Source: a virus. Taken from it: a stretch of 31,808 nucleotides of DNA. The DNA lies in UHGV virus genome UHGV-0195917. One strand, written 5' to 3'. Made by a program: the position numbers and the translations under genes. The notes beneath the pieces are model-generated. The model ran no database searches. It was not told where the DNA came from and worked only from the letters and a program-made list of their open reading frames with translations. Every line of letters starts with the position of its first letter. Positions within the stretch are counted from its first letter, which is position 1. Positions 3,955 to 29,035 of the stretch are shown here, one piece after another.

Positions 3955-6261
3955 ATGATTTTTCTTTACGAGCAGACCGAAAAAAATTTCACGACGGCGG
4001 GACTTTGCACGCTGCCGGATGCGACGTCTTGCGTGGTGACAGAGGAAAGAAATGGCGCGTACGAGCTGGAAATGCAGTATCCAATAAATGGTATCGCGTA
4101 TTCTTCCATCACCGCGCGCCGGATCATCTTTTGCCGCCCAAATCCTTACGAGCGCGAGCAGCCTTTCAGAATCTATAAAATTTCAAAGCCAATAAACGGC
4201 ATTGTGACCGTTTACGCCCAGCACATTTCGTACGATCTCAAAGGTATCCCGCTTTCTCCCTTTACTGCGGAGAATATCCTCACGGCGCTGCAAGGCTTCA
4301 CGACGTACGCGGTCGGCGACCAGCCGTTCACTTTCACTACGGACAAAACAACGACGGCAAATTTTGCCGTAACCGTCCCATCGTCCGCCCGGTCGATGCT
4401 CGGCGGGACGGATGGGTCGCTGTTGGATGTGTACGGCGGCGAGTACGTCTTTGATCAATATATCGTCGCGCTGAAAGCCGCGCGCGGAGAAAATCACGGC
4501 GTGGAAATCCGGTACGGGAAAAATTTGACAGACGTCACGCAAGAGGAAAACATTTCCAAAGTCGCGACCGGCGTTTATCCGTACTGGAAAAGCATGACCG
4601 ACGACACGCTGGTGATGCTGACGGAAAAGACGCTGGCCGCGCCCGGCACATACACTTTTTCCCACGTCGTGCCGCTCGATCTTTCGACGGAGTGGGACGA
4701 AGCGCCGACCGAAGCGCAGCTGCGCGCCAGAGCGCAGAAATACATGGAAGATAATGCCATTGGTGTGCCGGAAGTCTCGCTTTCCGTATCTTTTCAACCG
4801 CTGGCGGACACGGTCGAGTATAAAGACCTCGCGCCGCTGGAAGAGGTGCGGCTGTGCGACACGGTGACGGTGCTTTATCCGGAGCTGGGCGTATCGGCGA
4901 CGGCCAAGGTCATCCGCTGCGTGTACAATGTACTGCTGGGACGATATGACAAAATCGACATCGGCGACGCGCGCACGACGTTGGCGGACACGATCGCCGG
5001 GCAGGGTGATGCGATTTCCAATCTTCCCCTTGGCGACGTCGCGAAGCAAGCGACGGAGAGCAGCACAAATATTTCCCAAGAACTGCAAAAACTGCTGGCA
5101 AATGGCATGGGACTTTATACCTCAACCGTGGATGCAGAAAACGGCGGAAAAATTTTCTATATGCATGACAAACCGACGCTGGCACAGTCTACCAATATTT
5201 GGCGTATCCAAGGCGGCGTTTTCGCGGCCAGTGCGGACGGCGGGAACACATGGACGGCAGGATTTACCACCAGCGGGAACTCCGTGACAAAAGTCATCCA
5301 AACGGAAAAGATCGTGTCGCCGGTCGATGATGATGTGTATATCGATATGGTAAACGGTGACATTTCCGCAAAAACTTTGCGAAACTCCGACACGGAAAGC
5401 TACGTGCAGATCGGCTCTGATGGTACGACGTCACAGGGGCTTTTCCTATATCGAGATGATGTTCTTCGTGCCATGATGGCGACGCAACCGGAAACTACGT
5501 CAAAAAATGGAATGAGAACTTGGCTTTTATCTACGGTGGATTTATGGCTGCAAGGCGCACCAAGCCAAAACGGTGAGCCGTGCAGGCTGATCTTTAAGCG
5601 TGATGAAAATGACAAAGCCAACATTTTTTTTGAGATCGGATCGTCCCGAAGTTTTACAATTACACCCAGTCAATATTCTTTTGGCGTCATCGGTGGAGAG
5701 GCTGGATCGATCGATAGCGACGGATATCACGGCTGGGTTAATACAGACAGACTAAGATATGGGATTAATGCAGTAATTGGGAAGAATGCATATGGTGACA
5801 CTATCCATATTCGGGAAAATTCTGGCGATTATACATCGTGGAAAAGCTACGCGGGTACGGAAATCGCAAAGATGGACATGGAAAGCGGAGACTTTTCCAT
5901 CGAGGGAATTTTCAAGTCAAAAGGGAAAGAGTATAGCGGATACGGTACAGGAGAATCCGGATATGTAAAACTCGGCGGAATGGGAATTTGTTGGGGATAT
6001 GAACAATTTACGGTAGATATCTCGACGGCATGGGCTGGTATATACTACGCGAAAACGCAAACTGTTTTCCAATATCCCATACAATTCCAAACCGCACCAT
6101 CATTTTCCATGCAAGTTGAAGATCCGGGAGGAAATGTCATAGGTGCAACAATCGGACAAACGTCAAAAGACTATGCCCAAATCCTGTATACATACAGCCC
6201 GGCATCCGGGACGAGGACGTTTTACATCCATTGGCAAGCATTTGGATTATTGGCAGAATAA
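3955..6261 (+). CDS. Baseplate hub/Tal (prophage endopeptidase-tail family) with C-terminal fibre-like domain
   Basis: GGAGG SD 9 nt before ATG 3955. Motifs VTEERNGAYELEMQYP, QPFRIYKI, YGKNLT. C-terminal GYVKLGGMGICWG...WQAFG resembles gp53-like fibre tip domains. Confidence 0.85.
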   Translation: MIFLYEQTEKNFTTAGLCTLPDATSCVVTEERNGAYELEMQYPINGIAYSSITARRIIFCRPNPYEREQPFRIYKISKPINGIVTVYAQHISYDLKGIPLSPFTAENILTALQGFTTYAVGDQPFTFTTDKTTTANFAVTVPSSARSMLGGTDGSLLDVYGGEYVFDQYIVALKAARGENHGVEIRYGKNLTDVTQEENISKVATGVYPYWKSMTDDTLVMLTEKTLAAPGTYTFSHVVPLDLSTEWDEAPTEAQLRARAQKYMEDNAIGVPEVSLSVSFQPLADTVEYKDLAPLEEVRLCDTVTVLYPELGVSATAKVIRCVYNVLLGRYDKIDIGDARTTLADTIAGQGDAISNLPLGDVAKQATESSTNISQELQKLLANGMGLYTSTVDAENGGKIFYMHDKPTLAQSTNIWRIQGGVFAASADGGNTWTAGFTTSGNSVTKVIQTEKIVSPVDDDVYIDMVNGDISAKTLRNSDTESYVQIGSDGTTSQGLFLYRDDVLRAMMATQPETTSKNGMRTWLLSTVDLWLQGAPSQNGEPCRLIFKRDENDKANIFFEIGSSRSFTITPSQYSFGVIGGEAGSIDSDGYHGWVNTDRLRYGINAVIGKNAYGDTIHIRENSGDYTSWKSYAGTEIAKMDMESGDFSIEGIFKSKGKEYSGYGTGESGYVKLGGMGICWGYEQFTVDISTAWAGIYYAKTQTVFQYPIQFQTAPSFSMQVEDPGGNVIGATIGQTSKDYAQILYTYSPASGTRTFYIHWQAFGLLAE

Positions 6262-10614: not shown

Positions 10615-10682
10615 CTTTTACGAAAAAAACTTAAAAAATTTTTTCTTCCATCAATCACCAAAAAAGCAAATCCAAATCGGTT

Positions 10683-10966
10683 TTTGCCGCACTTTTTGCC
10701 GCACTTTTGCCGCACTTTTGCCCTTTGCCGCACCCCTGCCGCAGCCGTTTTGCACCCAAATGCACCTAAAATCCCCTTTGAAAAACGATACAAAAAATGC
10801 CAGTTTATCGCGATATACCGCAGCAAACCGGCACTTTCAAAGATCGGGCGTTAAAATATCCGCTAAATGGTAAAATGACAAGCATTTATTATGTTTTTTT
10901 CAAAATATCGCATGATAGCGCGGAAAATTTGGCTCCCATTTTACCCTTGCCGCACTTTTGCCGCAC
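10683..10966. repeat. Putative attP with arm-type integrase repeats (TTTGCCGCAC)
   Basis: Four full copies at 10683, 10695, 10706 and 10724. Two more at 10947 (9/10) and 10957, at the int 3' end. They flank an AT-rich non-coding gap directly downstream of int. Confidence 0.7.
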
Positions 10967-12050
10967 TTTCAGAAATTTCCGCTTTATGGGATTCCCTGTA
11001 ATCCCGCAGGGCTTGCTCTGCTGAAATTTCCATTTCATCCGTAAAATGGGTGTAGACGTTCGCTGTCATTTTTATGTCAGCATGTCCCATAAGTACCTTT
11101 GCGATGTTGAGCGGGACGCCTGCCGCTTGCATATCCGTGGCAAAAGTATGCCGCAGGCAGTATGCGGTGAGATCGGGCGCGAGCTTTGACACGGCTATGA
11201 GCTTTCCGCGCATCACAGCGCCCATCTCGATGTCCAGAGCGCGTCGAAAGCTCCGCCATAGCGCTGAACCGGTGTACTGATCTGGCGGCGTCACGCCGTC
11301 TTCCTTTGTAAAAATATGGACAGATCGAGCCTTGCGCTTTGCGGCTTGAAGATCGTCCATCAGCTCCGGTGGAGCTGGGACGCGACGCACACCGGCGCGT
11401 GTCTTGGTGGTGCCCCGCCATATCGAGTGGGACACAGATATGACGCCGCGCGGAAAATCGATATCCGACCACAGCAGATCGAGCGCTTCCGATGGACGCA
11501 GCCCGCAGTACAGCATGATTTTGACCCACAGACCAGCGCGGTGCGTCTCAGCGACTTTTAGTATGGCGGCGCGCTCCGCTTCGGTGATCGACCTGTGCGT
11601 GCCCTCCCATGTCTCTGGTAACTTTATCCCTCGCATGGGATTTTTCGGTATAATATCATCGTTCACTGCGCATTCCAGTATTTGGAATGCAGTTACGTGG
11701 ATTCTTCGGACTTTGCTCCTGCTTTCCCCAGCGTGCGATGATAGTATGCGAGCGCAGTGGCTTCGCCGGATGTCGGAAATACTTAAATTCCCAACTATTG
11801 GATTTATATGTAACCGTATATCCGCCTCATACGACTGGCAAGTTTTTTTGGCAACTGTACCCTTTTTATACGTTTCGAGCCAATATGCTGCATAGTCTTT
11901 GAATTTTGTATTACTGTTCATGACAGTAATCCCATTTTCAACCTTTATCCGCGCTTCCAGTATCTTTTTTTCCAGCTCCGCTTGGCTATCGGCCCGGATG
12001 GTCATCCGCCGCCCGCCCGGCAAAGTGATATCTTTTCTAAATTTTTGCAT
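10941..12050 (-). CDS. int: Tyrosine integrase
   Basis: Catalytic motifs GLRPSE (R), TKT (K), YCLRH, MGH and VYTH (Y). SAM-like core-binding domain. GAAAGGAG SD. Confidence 0.95.
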   Translation of the reverse strand: MQKFRKDITLPGGRRMTIRADSQAELEKKILEARIKVENGITVMNSNTKFKDYAAYWLETYKKGTVAKKTCQSYEADIRLHINPIVGNLSISDIRRSHCARILSSHAGESRSKVRRIHVTAFQILECAVNDDIIPKNPMRGIKLPETWEGTHRSITEAERAAILKVAETHRAGLWVKIMLYCGLRPSEALDLLWSDIDFPRGVISVSHSIWRGTTKTRAGVRRVPAPPELMDDLQAAKRKARSVHIFTKEDGVTPPDQYTGSALWRSFRRALDIEMGAVMRGKLIAVSKLAPDLTAYCLRHTFATDMQAAGVPLNIAKVLMGHADIKMTANVYTHFTDEMEISAEQALRDYRESHKAEISESAAKVRQG

Positions 12051-12386: not shown

Positions 12387-12950
12387 ATGAACTTTAGGGA
12401 CTATGAGAAATCGCGTGATAGCGCGTGGAAAATACTGATCGACTGCCACGTGGGTGGCCTCCCGGTTGAAGTGACTGGCATATGCCATCATCTCGGCATC
12501 TGTATACGCGCGCTGGATGTGGACGATATGCGCGACGGCGTGAGTACGGTCATCGACGGTGTGCCATATATCGGGATTAACCGCTTTCGGCCGGTCGAGC
12601 GGATACGCTTTACCATAGCGCACGAAGTCGGCCATATCATCCTGGGACACGTCGGCCGATATGACCATATAAATCGCGAGCCGTCCATGACAGATAACCC
12701 CATCGAGCACGCCGCGGACGTCTTTGCGTCGCGACTGCTAGCTCCGTCGTGTGTGCTGTGGGGGTGCCGGGTGCGCTGTGCAGAGGATATCCGGATACTA
12801 TGCGGCATCAGCCACGCCGCGTCCGTGTACCGCTGGGAGCGGATGCGCGTGCTGTACCAGCGAGGAAAATTTTTCAAATCCCCGCTAGAACGACAAGTGT
12901 ATTCCGAATTTTGGGATTTCATTCAGCACCATCAGTTTCCAGCTGTGTAG
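12387..12950 (+). CDS. immA: ImmA/IrrE family metallopeptidase (anti-repressor)
   Basis: RFTIAHEVGH (HExxH) and EHAADVFASRLLAP motifs. Located between int and the repressors. Confidence 0.9.
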   Translation: MNFRDYEKSRDSAWKILIDCHVGGLPVEVTGICHHLGICIRALDVDDMRDGVSTVIDGVPYIGINRFRPVERIRFTIAHEVGHIILGHVGRYDHINREPSMTDNPIEHAADVFASRLLAPSCVLWGCRVRCAEDIRILCGISHAASVYRWERMRVLYQRGKFFKSPLERQVYSEFWDFIQHHQFPAV

Positions 12951-13710
12951 TGGACGACACCCGGTACGCTTCCAGGCTCAAAATGGCATCTACGACGGCT
13001 TTTCCGTGCGCGTCGAGCGAACGGATTTTTTTTATATACAACTTTTCTTCGTCCGTGAAGATATCGCCGCTTTCGGGTGTGCCGAAATCGCAAAAATCAT
13101 ACAAATTTCTTCCCAACGCTTGTGAAATTGCCGCGATATTGCTCCACGTGGGGGATTTTGATATTCCGGCAACGATTTTATTTATGGTACTTTTTGGCAC
13201 ACCGGATTTTTCAGCGAGTTCATCGATCGTCAGCCCGGCGGCCTTTCTGTACATCGATATTTTTTCGCCTATCGGTATCGAATCGAAAGATTCCGGCCTT
13301 AAATTTCCTGTGCCTATCGATTTTACATCAAGACCCACTGCGCCGAAAATTTTTGTTACGATTCCGACACCGGCATTTGAAATTCCGCGTTGCAATATGG
13401 AATATATGGTTGAACCTAGGATTCCTATATCATTTGCCAAATCTGCGATAGAACCGTATTTTTTACATATCTCACGTCGAAGCTGCTCTTCCTCAGAAAG
13501 CGATTCTTCTTTTTCTTGATCCATCAGCAAAGAATTCGCATCGCACCCAAGCGCCTGCATGAGCTTTTGCAAAATCTCTTTGCGGGGCATACTGACATTA
13601 TTCTCATAATTTGCTATTGCACTGGCTGTCACGCCGACTATTTCCGCAAGCTGCTCCTGCGTCAACCCGGCTTCCTGTCGAAAATCCCGAAGATTTGTCG
13701 AAAAACTCAT
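12919..13710 (-). CDS. Triple XRE-HTH protein B with CI-like C-terminal helix
   Basis: Three HTH domains (aa ~1-63, ~72-137, ~147-207) and tail EEKLYIKKIRSLDAHGKAVVDAIL. AAGGAG SD. Confidence 0.85.
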   Translation of the reverse strand: MSFSTNLRDFRQEAGLTQEQLAEIVGVTASAIANYENNVSMPRKEILQKLMQALGCDANSLLMDQEKEESLSEEEQLRREICKKYGSIADLANDIGILGSTIYSILQRGISNAGVGIVTKIFGAVGLDVKSIGTGNLRPESFDSIPIGEKISMYRKAAGLTIDELAEKSGVPKSTINKIVAGISKSPTWSNIAAISQALGRNLYDFCDFGTPESGDIFTDEEKLYIKKIRSLDAHGKAVVDAILSLEAYRVSSTTQLETDGAE

Positions 13711-13713
13711 TTT

Positions 13714-14538
13714 TTACACTCCTTCACATCTTTCCGCTTCTTTTTCAAGCACAAAATCAACCATTTCCCTGCCATGCACGTCTAATATGCGGTATTTCCC
13801 CAACATTTCCATTTCTTCTTTTGATGGCGTGGGTTTCGGCGCGGCGGGCAGTCCGAGAAGATCGTTGGCGGATATGCCCAATTCTTTGCAAATCGTTTTT
13901 ATCATGTCTGCGTTCGGACGATTTATGCCAAGCTCCCAATTTGACAATCTTCCGGGAGATATATCCAATTTTTGTGCAAACTTTTTTTGTGACAGGCCAG
14001 CGCTTTCTCTCAGTGAACGGATTCTTTGTCCTATATCATAATTTTTTATTTCTGCCCCATCATCCCCGTGCGTCCCAAGAAGATACGATGGCGGAATTTC
14101 CAATGCTGCTGCCAATTTTTGTATCATATCACGCTTTAAGTCAATGCGACTGTTTTCATACTTGCAAACGGCCTGTTTTTGTACGCCAATCATTTTCCCA
14201 AGTTCTTCCTGCGTCATTCCGAGTTCAAGACGTCTGCATCGTATAAGTGATCCTATATCCATTATTACATTTTGTGGTAAATTTCGGCGCCCTGAGATGT
14301 TGGATATCTGTTCAATTTTTTCGGATTCTGGATATTCCTGGAATTCCTTTAATATATTTTCCACTTTGTAGATTTTACAAAGCAGCATCAGCATCTCGAT
14401 ATCTGGCTGGCCACGGCCATTTTCCCATGCGTTCACGGCCTTCCCGCTTCTCCCTATCATGGTGCCGACCTGATCGGCAGTAAGACCTTGATTTTCACGC
14501 ATTCTTTTCAGCGCTTTCGCGATAAATTCCCTCGACAA
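13714..14538 (-). CDS. Triple XRE-HTH protein A with CI-like C-terminal helix
   Basis: Three HTH domains (aa ~1-66, ~93-155, ~168-229) and tail EEMEMLGKYRILDVHGREMVDFVLEKEAER. AAGGAG SD with TTG start. Confidence 0.87.
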   Translation of the reverse strand: MSREFIAKALKRMRENQGLTADQVGTMIGRSGKAVNAWENGRGQPDIEMLMLLCKIYKVENILKEFQEYPESEKIEQISNISGRRNLPQNVIMDIGSLIRCRRLELGMTQEELGKMIGVQKQAVCKYENSRIDLKRDMIQKLAAALEIPPSYLLGTHGDDGAEIKNYDIGQRIRSLRESAGLSQKKFAQKLDISPGRLSNWELGINRPNADMIKTICKELGISANDLLGLPAAPKPTPSKEEMEMLGKYRILDVHGREMVDFVLEKEAERCEGV

Positions 14539-14585
14539 AAAACCACTCCTTGCGTCTATAAAGGATGATAATGCTCGTGTATCTT

Positions 14586-15080
14586 CTATATCTTTTCGGT
14601 AAATTCTGGTAAATTCCGGATCGCATCCGCTTCTTCCTCGGTGATATCCTTTTCCTCGAAAGAACCATCAAAACCAGCGATTTTGACGTGGTACATCTTT
14701 GGTGTAGGTGCAGCTTCCGCGGCAACCCGCTCCGCTTCCTTTTCCAAAACTAAATTTACCATTTCTTTCCCATATTCGTCCAGCGTGTGATATTTTCTTA
14801 TAAGCGCGAGATCAGCAGCGGTTACGGGTGTGAGCGCGATGTTGGCATCTTCCCTTTCGGCTTTATCTCTTTGGAGGTCAGAAATCCGTATACCAAGAAC
14901 ATCCGCCAGTTTTTGTGCTTTTTCAGGCCGCGGATATTTTTTCCCGCTAAACCAATCGGACACTGTGGCGGTGCTCACCCCCAATCTTGTCGCGATTTCA
15001 ACCTGCGTAATGCCGCTTTGCTTTTGGTACCAACGCAAATTATCGGCAAAAATTGCCCTTGCTTCACTTTCTGTCGGCAT
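14586..15080 (-). CDS. cI: CI-like immunity repressor (ImmR type)
   Basis: N-terminal XRE HTH, KYHTLDEYGKEMVNLVLEKEAER helix and an extra tail with KIAGFDG. Divergent from cro. GAAAGGA SD before ATG 15080. Confidence 0.85.
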   Translation of the reverse strand: MPTESEARAIFADNLRWYQKQSGITQVEIATRLGVSTATVSDWFSGKKYPRPEKAQKLADVLGIRISDLQRDKAEREDANIALTPVTAADLALIRKYHTLDEYGKEMVNLVLEKEAERVAAEAAPTPKMYHVKIAGFDGSFEEKDITEEEADAIRNLPEFTEKI

Positions 15081-15102
15081 AAACTCACTTCCTTTCATAG
15101 CT

Positions 15103-15190
15103 ATTATATCACGCTAAAAGCGAAAAAATCAAGCGTTTTTTCAAAAAAATTGATTTTTAGCTTGACAATTAGCTTTTAGCGAGTTATAAT
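15103..15190. promoter_or_regulatory. Primary lysis/lysogeny switch: divergent promoters with operators
   Basis: Rightward TTGACA (15162), 17 bp, TATAAT (15185). Leftward TTGATT, 18 bp, TGnTATAAT (15103-15132). Palindromes CGCTAAAAGCG (15112) and TAGCTTTTAGCGA (15170); a third copy TTAGCTTTAAGCTAA at 15417. Confidence 0.85.
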
Positions 15191-15218
15191 AGAAGTGCAA
15201 AAGGAGGGGATTGAAAAA

Positions 15219-15413
15219 ATGCCTGAAAAAATCACACTCGCAGCAGCAAGAGTAAATGCCGGATTATCTCAAAAAGATGCAGCAAAGCTGATTGGCGTCA
15301 GCCCGGCCACACTTCGCAACTACGAAACTGGGAAAACATCCCCGGGATGGGGTGTTGTAAGAAAAATTGAAAAAGTCTATGGTATGTCAATCGACTATAT
15401 TTTTTTACCGTAA
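15219..15413 (+). CDS. cro: Cro-like repressor
   Basis: 64-aa XRE HTH (ITLAAARVNAGLSQKDAAKLIGVS). First rightward gene of the switch, with GGAGG SD. Confidence 0.88.
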   Translation: MPEKITLAAARVNAGLSQKDAAKLIGVSPATLRNYETGKTSPGWGVVRKIEKVYGMSIDYIFLP

Positions 15414-15449
15414 AAGTTAGCTTTAAGCTAATAGAAAGGATGACGCAAG

Positions 15450-15507
15450 TGAGAAAAGAAAAAGGCGCAGCCCTCACACCGCAGGAGCGGGAGCTGCGCA
15501 CGATGAA
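15450..15507. repeat. 58-bp direct repeat, copy 1 (also a leftward intrinsic terminator)
   Basis: 57/58 identical to 16131-16188. GCGCAGC...GCTGCGC stem followed on the minus strand by CTTTTTCTTTTC. Confidence 0.9.
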
Positions 15508-15518
15508 GATGTGATCCC

Positions 15519-15737
15519 TCAGCGGTTCATCTCGGGGTTGTCCGTCCGGCCGCAGAGGTAGTCGAGCGACACGCCGTAGAAGTCAGCGAGGGAAATTAAG
15601 ACCGTAGCAGATGGAATGACTTTACCATACTCATAGGACTGATAAAGCCTTTCAGCAACACCGGCACCCGCGGCGGCTTGCTTTTGCGTGATACCAAGAG
15701 ATTTTCTGAATCGTTTAAAAGCATCTGATAATTCCAT
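15519..15737 (-). CDS. Small XRE repressor of a second switch
   Basis: 72-aa HTH ending LADFYGVSLDYLCGRTDNP. Recognition helix ERLYQSYEY. Confidence 0.88.
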   Translation of the reverse strand: MELSDAFKRFRKSLGITQKQAAAGAGVAERLYQSYEYGKVIPSATVLISLADFYGVSLDYLCGRTDNPEMNR

Positions 15738-15849: not shown

Positions 15850-16041
15850 GTGAACATGAAGCTACGCGCAGCCCGCGAGGCGTCCGGTAAGACGCAGGCG
15901 CAGGTTGCAAGGGAAGTCCAAATCAGCGAGCGCATGTATCAGTCATATGAGTATGACAGATGCGAACCCGGCGTGCAGACGGCAATCCGCATCGCTCGGG
16001 TGCTGAAATCCACCGTCGAAGCGCTTTTCAGTGATGATTGA
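15850..16041 (+). CDS. Cro-like XRE protein of the second switch
   Basis: 63-aa HTH with recognition helix ERMYQSYEY. The start could instead be ATG 15856. Confidence 0.87.
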   Translation: MNMKLRAAREASGKTQAQVAREVQISERMYQSYEYDRCEPGVQTAIRIARVLKSTVEALFSDD

Positions 16042-16070: not shown

Positions 16071-16130
16071 GAAGATTTTTTGAGACAGAAAGGATGACGC
16101 GAGTGCGACTGATAGAAAAAATGAAGCGGC

Positions 16131-16188
16131 TGAGAAAAGAAAAAGGCGCAGCCCTCACACCGCAAGAGCGGGAGCTGCGCACGATGAA
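16131..16188. repeat. 58-bp direct repeat, copy 2 (leftward terminator)
   Basis: 57/58 identical to 15450-15507. Confidence 0.9.
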
Positions 16189-16231
16189 CATCCTGATCTT
16201 TAGCATCATAGCGGTGCAGTCGATCACGACA

Positions 16232-16855: not shown

Positions 16856-17155
16856 ATGGGAAAATATCACTTTAACATAATCCTGAAAGAAAAAGGGCTT
16901 GGGCTTGAAGATATCACAAAAGCCCTGGGGATCAAGGACGACCCGATCCACCATGTGGACAAAGGGCAGATCACTTTGCAGCGGCTCCATGAGATCGACC
17001 CGGACGGGTGGCCGTGGATGGGGTACGACATGACGATGCGCGACGTTCGGCGGATCGTGAAGCTGATGGAGCTGACGCCGGAGCAGATCATCGACGTCTT
17101 TTTCCGGGAAAATCCGGAGGGATGGCCGTACGTCGATCCGGACGATCCGGAGTAA
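16856..17155 (+). CDS. Hypothetical protein, possibly degenerate Cro-like
   Basis: AAAGGTAGGT SD. LKEKGLGLEDITKALGI and IVKLMELTPEQIIDVFF resemble the two halves of a Cro-type fold. Confidence 0.6.
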   Translation: MGKYHFNIILKEKGLGLEDITKALGIKDDPIHHVDKGQITLQRLHEIDPDGWPWMGYDMTMRDVRRIVKLMELTPEQIIDVFFRENPEGWPYVDPDDPE

Positions 17156-27361: not shown

Positions 27362-29035
27362 ATGGCACTGAAAGCGCTGATGCTGCGGCGCAGCATCGAA
27401 AACAAAAAGGCAGAGCTTGCCAAACTCACCGAGAAAGATGCAGAGATGCAGACGCGCGAGGCTGAGCTGGAAAAAAGCGTTGCCGAAGTCGAAACCGAGG
27501 AACAGCAAAATGCCGTTTCTGCCGAGATTGACCAGTTTGAAGCTGATCGAGCGGCACACGAAAAAAGTAAGTCCGATCTGCTGGAAAGCATTTCCGCCCT
27601 CGAAAGAGAGCTGGAAGAGCTGGAAAGATCTGATCCGGCTTTGCAGAAAAAAGAAGAACCGAAATCCGAAAGGGGTATGAACATGGCAAATTTTGACGTG
27701 CGGTCGCTGCCGATTGGCAAGGCGGTCGTGGATGCGCTGCCGACTGAGCAGCGGGAAATCATGATGCAGCGGGAGGATGTGAAAAAATTCCTTTCCGAAC
27801 TGCGGGCGTACAAGGGCCAGACGCGCGCGATCACGGGCGGCAGTCTGACGATCCCGACCGTGCTGCTGGACTTGGTGGCGGAAAATATGTACCGGTACAG
27901 CAAGCTCATCAACCGCGTGCGCGTGCGCAACGTCGCGGGCGTTGCCCGTCAGGTCGTGGCGGGTGTCATCCCGGAAGCGGTGTGGACGGAGATGTGCGGC
28001 GCAATCAACGAGCTGACGCTGGAATTTAATTCCTACTCGCTCGACGGGTACAAAGTCGCTGGATACGTCCCGGTGTGCAACGCGCTGCTGGAAGATAACG
28101 ACATCGCCCTCGCATCGTACATCGTGGAGGCGCTGGCGCAGGCGATCGGTCTGGCGCTGGACAAAGCGATCCTGTACGGCAAAGGATCCGGCAGCAAGAT
28201 GCCGATGGGTATCGTCACCCGGCTGGCGCAGCAGACGAAGCCGACCGACTATCCGTCCGACGCCCCGGCCTGGACTGATCTGCACACCACCAACATCCAA
28301 TCGATCGACGCGACCAAGACCGGCGCGGACTTTTGGTCGGCGCTGGCTCTGGCGGCGGGGAACACTTATACCAAATATTCCCGTGGGATTCAGTTCTGGG
28401 CGATGAACTCCAAGACCTACGCGAAACTGAAATCCAAAACCATCACATTTACGGCACAGGGTGACATTGTTTCCAATGTTTTCGGCGTCCTCCCGATCGT
28501 GAACGGGGACATCGATATTTTGGAATTTATGCCAGATGGTGACATCGTCGGCGGCTATGGCGATCTGTATCTGCTGGCGCAGCGCGCGGGCATGGAGATC
28601 GAAAGTGACAGATCGGTCCAGTTTATCCAGGATAACACTGTTTTCCGCGGCAAACAGCGCGCGGACGGCGTGCCGATCGTCCCGGGCGCTTTTGTGGCGA
28701 TCAACATCGACGGATCGACCGTCACGACCGCGATGGATTTTGCGGGAGATACTGCCAACGATGCGACGCTGTCCAGCCTGACGGTGGGCACCGAGACGCT
28801 GGCGCCGACCTTTGCGGCCGGTACGACGTCGTACGCGATCACCGCGTCCGGCACTTCGGCCGCCGTGACAGCGACCCCGGCGCAGGCCGATGCCGTGGTG
28901 GCAATTGCCTATAATGGCAAAAACGTCTCCAACGGCGCGTCCGTCACCTGGACGTCCGGCGCGCATCCGCTGACGATCACCGTCAAGCGCGGAAACTCTA
29001 CCCGCGTCTACACGGTCACGGTCACGAAGTCTTGA
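27362..29035 (+). CDS. Major capsid protein (HK97 fold) with N-terminal scaffold domain and C-terminal cadherin/Ig-like domain
   Basis: Coiled-coil N-terminus, LDKAILYGKG..MPMGI, and C-terminal NDATLSSLTVG..LAPTFAAGTTSY...YTVTVTK. Confidence 0.93.
   Translation: MALKALMLRRSIENKKAELAKLTEKDAEMQTREAELEKSVAEVETEEQQNAVSAEIDQFEADRAAHEKSKSDLLESISALERELEELERSDPALQKKEEPKSERGMNMANFDVRSLPIGKAVVDALPTEQREIMMQREDVKKFLSELRAYKGQTRAITGGSLTIPTVLLDLVAENMYRYSKLINRVRVRNVAGVARQVVAGVIPEAVWTEMCGAINELTLEFNSYSLDGYKVAGYVPVCNALLEDNDIALASYIVEALAQAIGLALDKAILYGKGSGSKMPMGIVTRLAQQTKPTDYPSDAPAWTDLHTTNIQSIDATKTGADFWSALALAAGNTYTKYSRGIQFWAMNSKTYAKLKSKTITFTAQGDIVSNVFGVLPIVNGDIDILEFMPDGDIVGGYGDLYLLAQRAGMEIESDRSVQFIQDNTVFRGKQRADGVPIVPGAFVAINIDGSTVTTAMDFAGDTANDATLSSLTVGTETLAPTFAAGTTSYAITASGTSAAVTATPAQADAVVAIAYNGKNVSNGASVTWTSGAHPLTITVKRGNSTRVYTVTVTKS

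Follow-up and report, generated by a model that had tools for sequence, protein, structure and literature searches.

The 31,808-nucleotide stretch of virus genome UHGV-0195917 that was analyzed here (the window) holds most of a temperate siphovirus, with tape measure, Dit, tail, holin, tyrosine integrase, replication, terminase, portal and capsid genes, and this report concerns two genes, A and B, that lie beside the repressor gene cI in its control module. We consider it fairly probable that each of the two encodes a fused array of DNA-binding domains (heads) that match those of other immunity groups' repressors and are predicted from their sequences to bind the early lytic operators of rival phages. 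If this explanation is pooled with a variant in which the same binding silences co-resident prophages, the two together seem quite likely to cover the truth. The arrays would probably represent a multiplexed, induction-proof form of 'immunity theft'. An earlier note, made from the letters of the window alone, had proposed such a library of foreign heads, and this first reading is supported, with the corrections given below. The two genes and their heads, with the relative that each head matches, are as follows.

13714..14538, minus strand: gene B, 274 amino acids, TTG start; heads B1, B2 and B3 and a helical hairpin, without the CI tail
14341..14538, minus strand: head B1, 89% identical to the single-head protein P0012, which bears the window phage's CI tail
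14074..14262, minus strand: head B2, 57% identical to the single-head S24 repressor P0125; it is also the first head of the tail-bearing P0008/P0009
13852..14037, minus strand: head B3, 73% identical to the single-head S24 repressor P0018
12919..13710, minus strand: gene A, 263 amino acids; heads A1, A2 and A3 and a helical hairpin, without the CI tail
13522..13710, minus strand: head A1, 49% identical to the primary cI head of locus L007, which has the same immA neighbor and tail
13312..13494, minus strand: head A2, 60% identical to the primary cI head of the close sibling L014
13087..13275, minus strand: head A3, 66% identical to the primary cI head of L006 and 71% to protein P0043

As the earlier note described, the two genes lie directly downstream of cI, in the same orientation, and each holds three XRE-type helix-turn-helix (HTH) heads. 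Scanned singly, A1, A3, B1, B2 and B3 score above the cut-off of the Pfam model HTH_3 (PF01381), at 41-64 bits against 23, and A2 alone gave no Pfam match at E<=0.05. A2 is accepted as a divergent XRE head because of its identity to the L014 cI head (listed above) and to L263 (49%), a stand-alone repressor that adjoins cro and integrase and that itself matches HTH_3 at E 5e-4, below the cut-off, and because AlphaFold2 makes it helical, with low to moderate confidence. Our custom head profile also counts three heads per gene, a count that is not independent because the window's heads were included in building it. The AlphaFold2 models of A and B are moderate (mean pLDDT, the predicted local distance difference test score, 60.8 and 65.4) and display three helical units and a C-terminal hairpin in each protein, with linkers of low confidence; fold and PDB searches returned generic XRE matches only, none at E<=0.001.

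The six heads are 19-35% identical among themselves and 15-35% identical to CI and Cro. The recognition helices quoted in the earlier note all read as stated; the six are distinct, and none is the CI or Cro helix. With heads so unlike one another, a recent or simple internal duplication is rejected, as it was in that note, and the same low identity counts against Wmk-like internally duplicated multi-HTH regulators, whose model scores 44 and 68 bits against a cut-off of 300. CapH/CapP or RmrA defense regulators were rejected as well: the PADLOC matches span single HTH or peptidase stretches only, and the neighboring genes are integrase and cro.

When each head is searched separately, as the earlier note proposed, the best match is a different single-head repressor in every case. 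The diagonal of the matrix of heads against cognates lies at 49-89% identity and the off-diagonal values at 13-38%, and in a 36-row tree, built on an alignment of only 65 columns, strongly supported branches unite A2, A3, B1 and B3 with their cognates, A1 and B2 being weakly resolved. Genomic context was seen for the A1, A2, A3 and B1 families; the cognates of B2 and B3 are known as proteins only, and the protein searches did not find B2 as a single head with a window-type CI tail. A scan of metagenome contigs with the CI tail gave 13 loci, four of which encode the family tail (L006, L007, L014 and L015). All four have one single-head cI directly against immA, with a different head in each. 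For example, L014, a close sibling (92% over 3.9 kb), has an A2-type head and L006 an A3-type head, and L007, on a different backbone, combines an A1-type head with a 74% identical ImmA and the same tail. L015, from a human gut metagenome, has the window phage's own cI head (97%) and no array.

Relatives also carry other head combinations, which the earlier note had suggested looking for. Head order and number vary, from B1 by itself to B2+B3 (P0008/P0009), B1+B2+B3 (P0075), B1+C (P0010) and B1+A3+C (P0011), where C is a seventh head that occurs alone in P0094; the multi-head proteins in this series bear the tail. Elsewhere, searches of 401 genomes each found single-head relatives only (two for B, two for A1 and one for A2), none of 51 annotated phage records covers 80% of B, and no family member was found in viral contigs scanned with B, A and the CI alignment or in genome contigs scanned with the CI alignment. 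The view that the heads derive from foreign heteroimmune phages stands as to heteroimmunity, but the sources are largely phages with the same immA/CI module and not arbitrary ones. Likewise, the 'up to six' targets of that view should be read as an upper bound: several helices are one to three positions off their cognates, and operators were compared for four heads.

Two further observations concern multi-head proteins in general. The T-to-A helix change of gene B recurs in the B1-type head of P0015, an unrelated protein with three heads, and P0127-P0269 include many proteins whose XRE heads number 3 to 17 and are unlike one another, for example P0127 with 11 heads in 1002 amino acids.

The remaining parts of the control module are needed to follow the operators and the tail. 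The order is integrase, immA, gene A, gene B, cI and cro, with immA and cro on the plus strand and the other four on the minus strand.

14586..15098, minus strand: primary cI, with head, hairpin and tail; the true start is likely the ATG at 15080
14724-14816, minus strand: cI hairpin, shared with A and B
14589-14702, minus strand: cI tail, which holds IAGFDG at 14664-14681, the predicted protease site
15099..15218, no strand: cI-cro switch, with divergent promoter-like sites at 15103-15132 (minus) and 15162-15190 (plus)
15219..15413, plus strand: cro-like XRE gene
12387..12950, plus strand: immA, ImmA/IrrE-type M78 metallopeptidase with HEVGH (PF06114 at E 9.7e-10, plus alignment), convergent with cI-B-A
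10941..12050, minus strand: tyrosine integrase, which points to a temperate phage
12943..14584, no strand: optional cassette of 1.64 kb, absent in siblings

The switch of the window has its own operator-like repeats at 15110 and 15169, with a third copy at 15417 after cro, and each sibling switch has three copies of a motif of its own. The motifs that go with the heads of A and B are distributed differently. In the window the A2 motif has no exact site and the A3 motif has no site even with one mismatch; the A1 motif has one exact site, inside terL; and the B1 motif has none in its strict form and two in its loose form, both outside the control regions. Weight matrices for the same four heads found no control-region site in the window within their training range. 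The cognate operator-like motifs of A1, A2, A3 and B1 are thus missing from the phage's own switch, apart from one sub-threshold A1 site discussed below. The B1 family gives the same picture on a larger scale. Its 65 viral loci, many of them near-identical, are all single-head, and 60 have a divergent cro-like gene just upstream; a TCTAY-N6-AGA-type motif lies within 200 bases of all 60 primary B1 cI genes and of none of the four loci that have B1 as a second repressor.

The cassette is real and optional because some contigs skip 12943-14584 and others bridge its junctions. Joints that skip it (12942 to 14585 and 12933 to 14587) occur in contigs of two runs from two studies, and the cI genes of L006, L007, L014 and L015 abut immA without it; other contigs bridge the A-B junction (runs X1 and X4) and the B-cI junction (X1). 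Pieces of the locus occur in wastewater runs.

The gaps between genes are 47 bp from cI to B and 3 bp from B to A, AAGGAGTGG, resembling a ribosome-binding site, precedes the TTG start of gene B, and a similar GAAGGAG for gene A falls over the last codons of gene B. These gaps and sites suggest that cI, B and A are co-transcribed on one transcript; the only terminator-like match on this strand from cI to A is weak and lies within the cI coding sequence. The 3' end of gene A overlaps that of immA, whose product is a predicted anti-repressor. The G+C content is 45.3% in A, 43.6% in B, 46.6% in cI and 43.1% in cro, and 51.8-58.5% in four structural genes. Thus, the AT-richness remarked on in the earlier note is real relative to the structural genes, but it is rejected as a mark of foreign origin, cI and cro being equally low in G+C; the bias extends over the control module as a whole. 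The host is likely a member of the Clostridia because the closest relatives of the window's ImmA among 80 genome loci include a Lawsonibacter metagenome-assembled genome, which together with another such genome (51% and 55%) has single-head repressors.

Two features absent from the earlier note bear on how the arrays might work. A C-terminal helical hairpin is common to A, B and CI, and the tail with IAGFDG follows it in CI only. Within the window family, 28 stored proteins have array-type ends without the motif and 51 have the motif, these numbers including redundant cluster members. Known proteases of this type offer a guide. Listeria MpaR cuts within TIAAHID, between TIAA and HID (PMC6872733), and with IrrE and ImmA the cut in the repressor falls behind the head (PMC12828697).

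Similar arrangements have arisen in other lineages. A representative search gave 143 new hits, 109 of them with two or more heads and most of unseen context. Following up two of these proteins, P0159 and P0147, gave 87 loci, nine with a multi-head open reading frame; P0147 has no locus of its own among the 87. Five of the loci (L174-L178, lineage 2) share only immA with the window (56% amino acid identity) and yet have the same layout of cro, cI, a two-head gene and convergent immA. Three different primary cI heads are found in these five loci together with one and the same two-head gene (e.g., L174:6362-6952). The array-less siblings L182 and L179 have cI heads that match those of this gene at 85% and 71% identity, with identical recognition helices; the helices are unchanged and the linkers and tail have diverged. 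There are 12 array-less siblings in lineage 2, at least six primary cI head types sit on one tail in L174-L196, and P0159, a three-head form, adds a head 68% identical to that of L190. The L182-type operator is present in all three owners and in none of the five carriers, and a looser L179-type pattern has two matches in carriers, outside the switch. The equivalent tail motif, IAGRDG, is kept in 17 of 17 primary cI proteins and in none of the five array proteins, all of which have it replaced and keep the helix after it.

Lineage 3 (L108-L115, about 95% identical) has unfused copies of its siblings' heads that lack S24. The copying is reciprocal: the copies are separate genes that lie downstream of each phage's primary cI, and they have a short helix in common (e.g., L108:2419-4402 and L113:5434-5766). 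For example, L113 has B1 as its primary head plus an S24-less copy of the L108 head, and L108 has B1 without operators plus an S24-less copy of the L109 head. The displaced cI genes of this lineage still have remains of cro and promoter. Secondary copies without the predicted cleavage element thus occur in three lineages, by truncation in the window, by substitution in lineage 2 and by S24 loss in lineage 3. Because the element was lost in three ways in three lineages, these sequences would suggest selection for copies that induction cannot remove. There may also be a fourth lineage: in L104, a B1-type cI is followed after about 1 kb by a second repressor that has no tail (5453-5806), and P0166 joins a B1 head and another head to the same C-terminal end.

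The mechanism that we envisage is as follows. A lysogen would make CI, B and A from one promoter, by read-through from the cI promoter. A and B would dimerize through the shared hairpin, with each head shown twice to a palindromic site, and each head pair would bind the early operators of one rival heteroimmune group, so that superinfection immunity would cover up to six further groups. Provided that ImmA cuts in the IAGFDG tail, neither the phage's own induction nor an invader's ImmA would remove A and B. Presumably, recombination between the cI genes of siblings enlarged the array, the displaced cI genes being kept and fused.

Several points weigh against this explanation. The recognition helices differ from those of the cognates at two or three positions in A1, A2 and B2 and at one or two in B1 and B3, and so the true targets may be unsampled variants, or there may have been drift in the heads. 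Conservation is not significantly higher in the helix regions than in the rest (9/69 versus 38/194, p=0.27; 6/66 versus 29/208, p=0.40). The phage's own switch has an A1-like, AT-rich weak site at 15139, with a score of 14.9 against a lowest training score of 17.2; the motifs were deduced from repeats, those of A1-A3 from three training sites apiece, and the training-score threshold is circular. The tail is predicted to be the ImmA cut site from its likeness to the Listeria site between TIAA and HID (PMC6872733) and from the pattern of its loss. Tail loss in arrays is not obligatory because multi-head proteins that keep the tail exist (the P0008/P0009, P0010, P0011 and P0075 mentioned above, known as proteins only). 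Finally, the copy of the L109 head in L108 has no clear start codon.

Four rival explanations can be considered. In the first, the arrays mainly silence co-resident heteroimmune prophages, above all under shared ImmA activity, and the phage monopolizes the cell. The predicted cleavage element gone from the secondary copies of three lineages would fit this role, as would the finding that several elements living in one cell can have their repressors cut by a single M78 protease (PMC6872733) and the occurrence in L007, on another backbone, of a closely similar ImmA and the same tail. However, uncleavable copies would serve superinfection defense equally well, and we regard silencing as unlikely to be the main role.

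The second rival is that incoming immunity cassettes recombine in upstream of the old cI genes, which are thereby displaced, become fused and linger as relics that no longer have a function. Lineage 3 shows such displacement, cro and promoter remains included, many siblings have no array, the helices in the window family have diverged from those of the known cognates, and a partly deleted array form exists (P0060). The sequences themselves speak for maintenance: 17 of 30 changed codons are synonymous, where about 27% would be expected (p=0.006 against 33%). This count used 37 substitutions listed for runs X1 and X4, from 40 of 43 rows at low depths, and excluded the X1 contig at 13889-14031, whose loose ends show a different, CI-like form. 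Moreover, the aligned variants (14 of A and nine full-length tailless B) have open frames at 90-95% identity, the sites resembling ribosome-binding sites are kept, and the two-head gene of lineage 2 has been retained behind three different cI genes with its helices constant while its linkers and tail diverged. We find it rather unlikely that the arrays are relics of this kind.

A third possibility is that A and B tune the phage's own switch, either as hairpin heterodimers with CI or as ImmA decoys, and that the heads matter little. The hairpin common to all three proteins and the weak site at 15139 are what it would predict, and the N-terminal domain of DdrO is reported to contribute to IrrE binding (PMC12828697). 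It would leave unexplained six distinct heads that each match a rival cI, and in lineage 2 one and the same array stands behind three primary heads that are unrelated; we think it quite improbable. Very improbable, lastly, is a novel regulator whose fused heads jointly read a new composite site or host genes: multi-head XRE proteins are common, as the 109 of 143 new hits indicate, but head order and number vary freely and the linkers are long and of low confidence in both models.

Returning to arrays of rivals' heads as the preferred explanation, we can ask how it compares with known systems. Immunity theft has been described in mycobacteriophages. Theft of one repressor was proposed for LRRHood gp44, which is 99% identical to its donor (PMC3029335), and was shown for the Bxb1-like repressor of Mcgavigan, which lysogeny can do without but heterotypic immunity requires (PMC12700041). 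A and B are like these cases in that an extra repressor of another immunity group is absent from close relatives and comes without its operators. In the window, the heads match primary repressors of other groups, the carrier lacks the cognate operators of A2, A3 and B1 (with the one sub-threshold site for A1), and the cassette is absent from all four family loci and from the joints in two runs; the array-less siblings suggest that it is dispensable for lysogeny. The difference is that the mycobacteriophages have one full-length repressor, whereas here there are six heads, three per chain on one hairpin, at 49-89% identity. They come largely from same-module phages, vary combinatorially and lack the predicted cleavage tail. 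Because A and B are fused and tailless at that identity, rather than one intact, stand-alone, near-identical donor copy, they are set apart from published immunity theft. They probably work like it, yet in a fused, multiplexed and presumably uncleavable form; theft of single repressors has already been published and tested.

The ImmR/ImmA-type switches (ImmR/ImmA of ICEBs1, MpaR and a CI-like repressor in Listeria, IrrE/DdrO in Deinococcus) also have an XRE repressor beside an M78 metallopeptidase (PMC6872733, PMC12828697, PMC12637031). The sequence of the window cI fits this class, as it encodes an XRE repressor beside an HExxH M78 peptidase and diverges from an operator-bearing lytic promoter. 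Its tail motif, IAGFDG...EEADAI, resembles the Listeria MpaR site TIAAHIDxxxxEExxxxI (PMC6872733). However, the available parts of these three papers describe no multi-head companion, and the window motif, where the cut is predicted, follows a helical hairpin. In CTXphi, too, one phage family has many heteroimmune alleles of its repressor gene, rstR, and several of them can share a cell, but each allele has its own prophage copy and operator, whereas the window heads have neither operators nor genomes (PMC11509585). Nor are fused arrays described in the available parts of PMC6550527, PMC12637031 and PMC11509585. The earlier note knew of no description of the fused architecture, and our literature searches, whose coverage left out most subscription papers and supplements, found none of fused or arrayed stolen repressors either.

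That linked or shortened heads can act is known from artificial proteins. Engineered single-chain 434 repressors, in which heads are covalently linked, and C-terminally truncated CI in Lactococcus can still block phages. Those proteins have one specificity; the window arrays are natural and would have several.

In the textbook view, repressor immunity means one phage and one specificity, and theft of a single gene is a curiosity. If the arrays work, one prophage would close its host to several immunity groups, immunity between siblings would be one-sided, and the multi-HTH 'repressor' genes of gut prophages would be readable records of past competitors. They would also display a route by which natural multi-specific DNA-binding proteins are assembled. 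The idea is directly open to reporter assays because in three lineages heads can be matched with their predicted operators and their copies in arrays. L174-L196 is the best such set, and the sharpest prediction is in lineage 2 because the array helices are identical to those of the siblings' cI. A more sweeping proposal, which we advance tentatively and with doubts that outweigh our confidence, is that temperate phages of Firmicutes hold at the cI locus a recombination-written, protein-encoded memory of rival immunity groups, in which displaced heads without operators or cleavage sites are concatenated as induction-proof repressors of several specificities. Such libraries would then account for many of the unexplained 3- to 17-head XRE proteins in public data, a widespread and unrecognized phage-versus-phage defense with a head-operator code that could be read from sequence.

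Several other features of the window deserve mention. After cro there is a second divergent pair of small XRE genes, 15519-15737 (minus) and 15850-16041 (plus), with two promoter-like sites and an inverted motif occurring twice between them. L014 and L015 have this pair with other helices and motifs and the same C-terminal end, and it looks like a second swappable switch. An 83-nucleotide direct repeat (89%), at 15428-15510 and 16109-16191, lies on both sides of the pair and may mediate its gain or loss; joints near the repeat area were seen in run X1. A 99-amino-acid gene without annotation has one copy in the window (16856-17155) and two in L014 (10790-11097 and 12199-12498), where they flank L014's second XRE pair. 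Short tandem repeats with a TTTTGCCGCAC-like unit, at 10645-10720, lie downstream of the integrase near the probable attP and are present in L014 too. Finally, the major capsid protein (27362-29035) has a cadherin-like beta-sandwich domain at its end.

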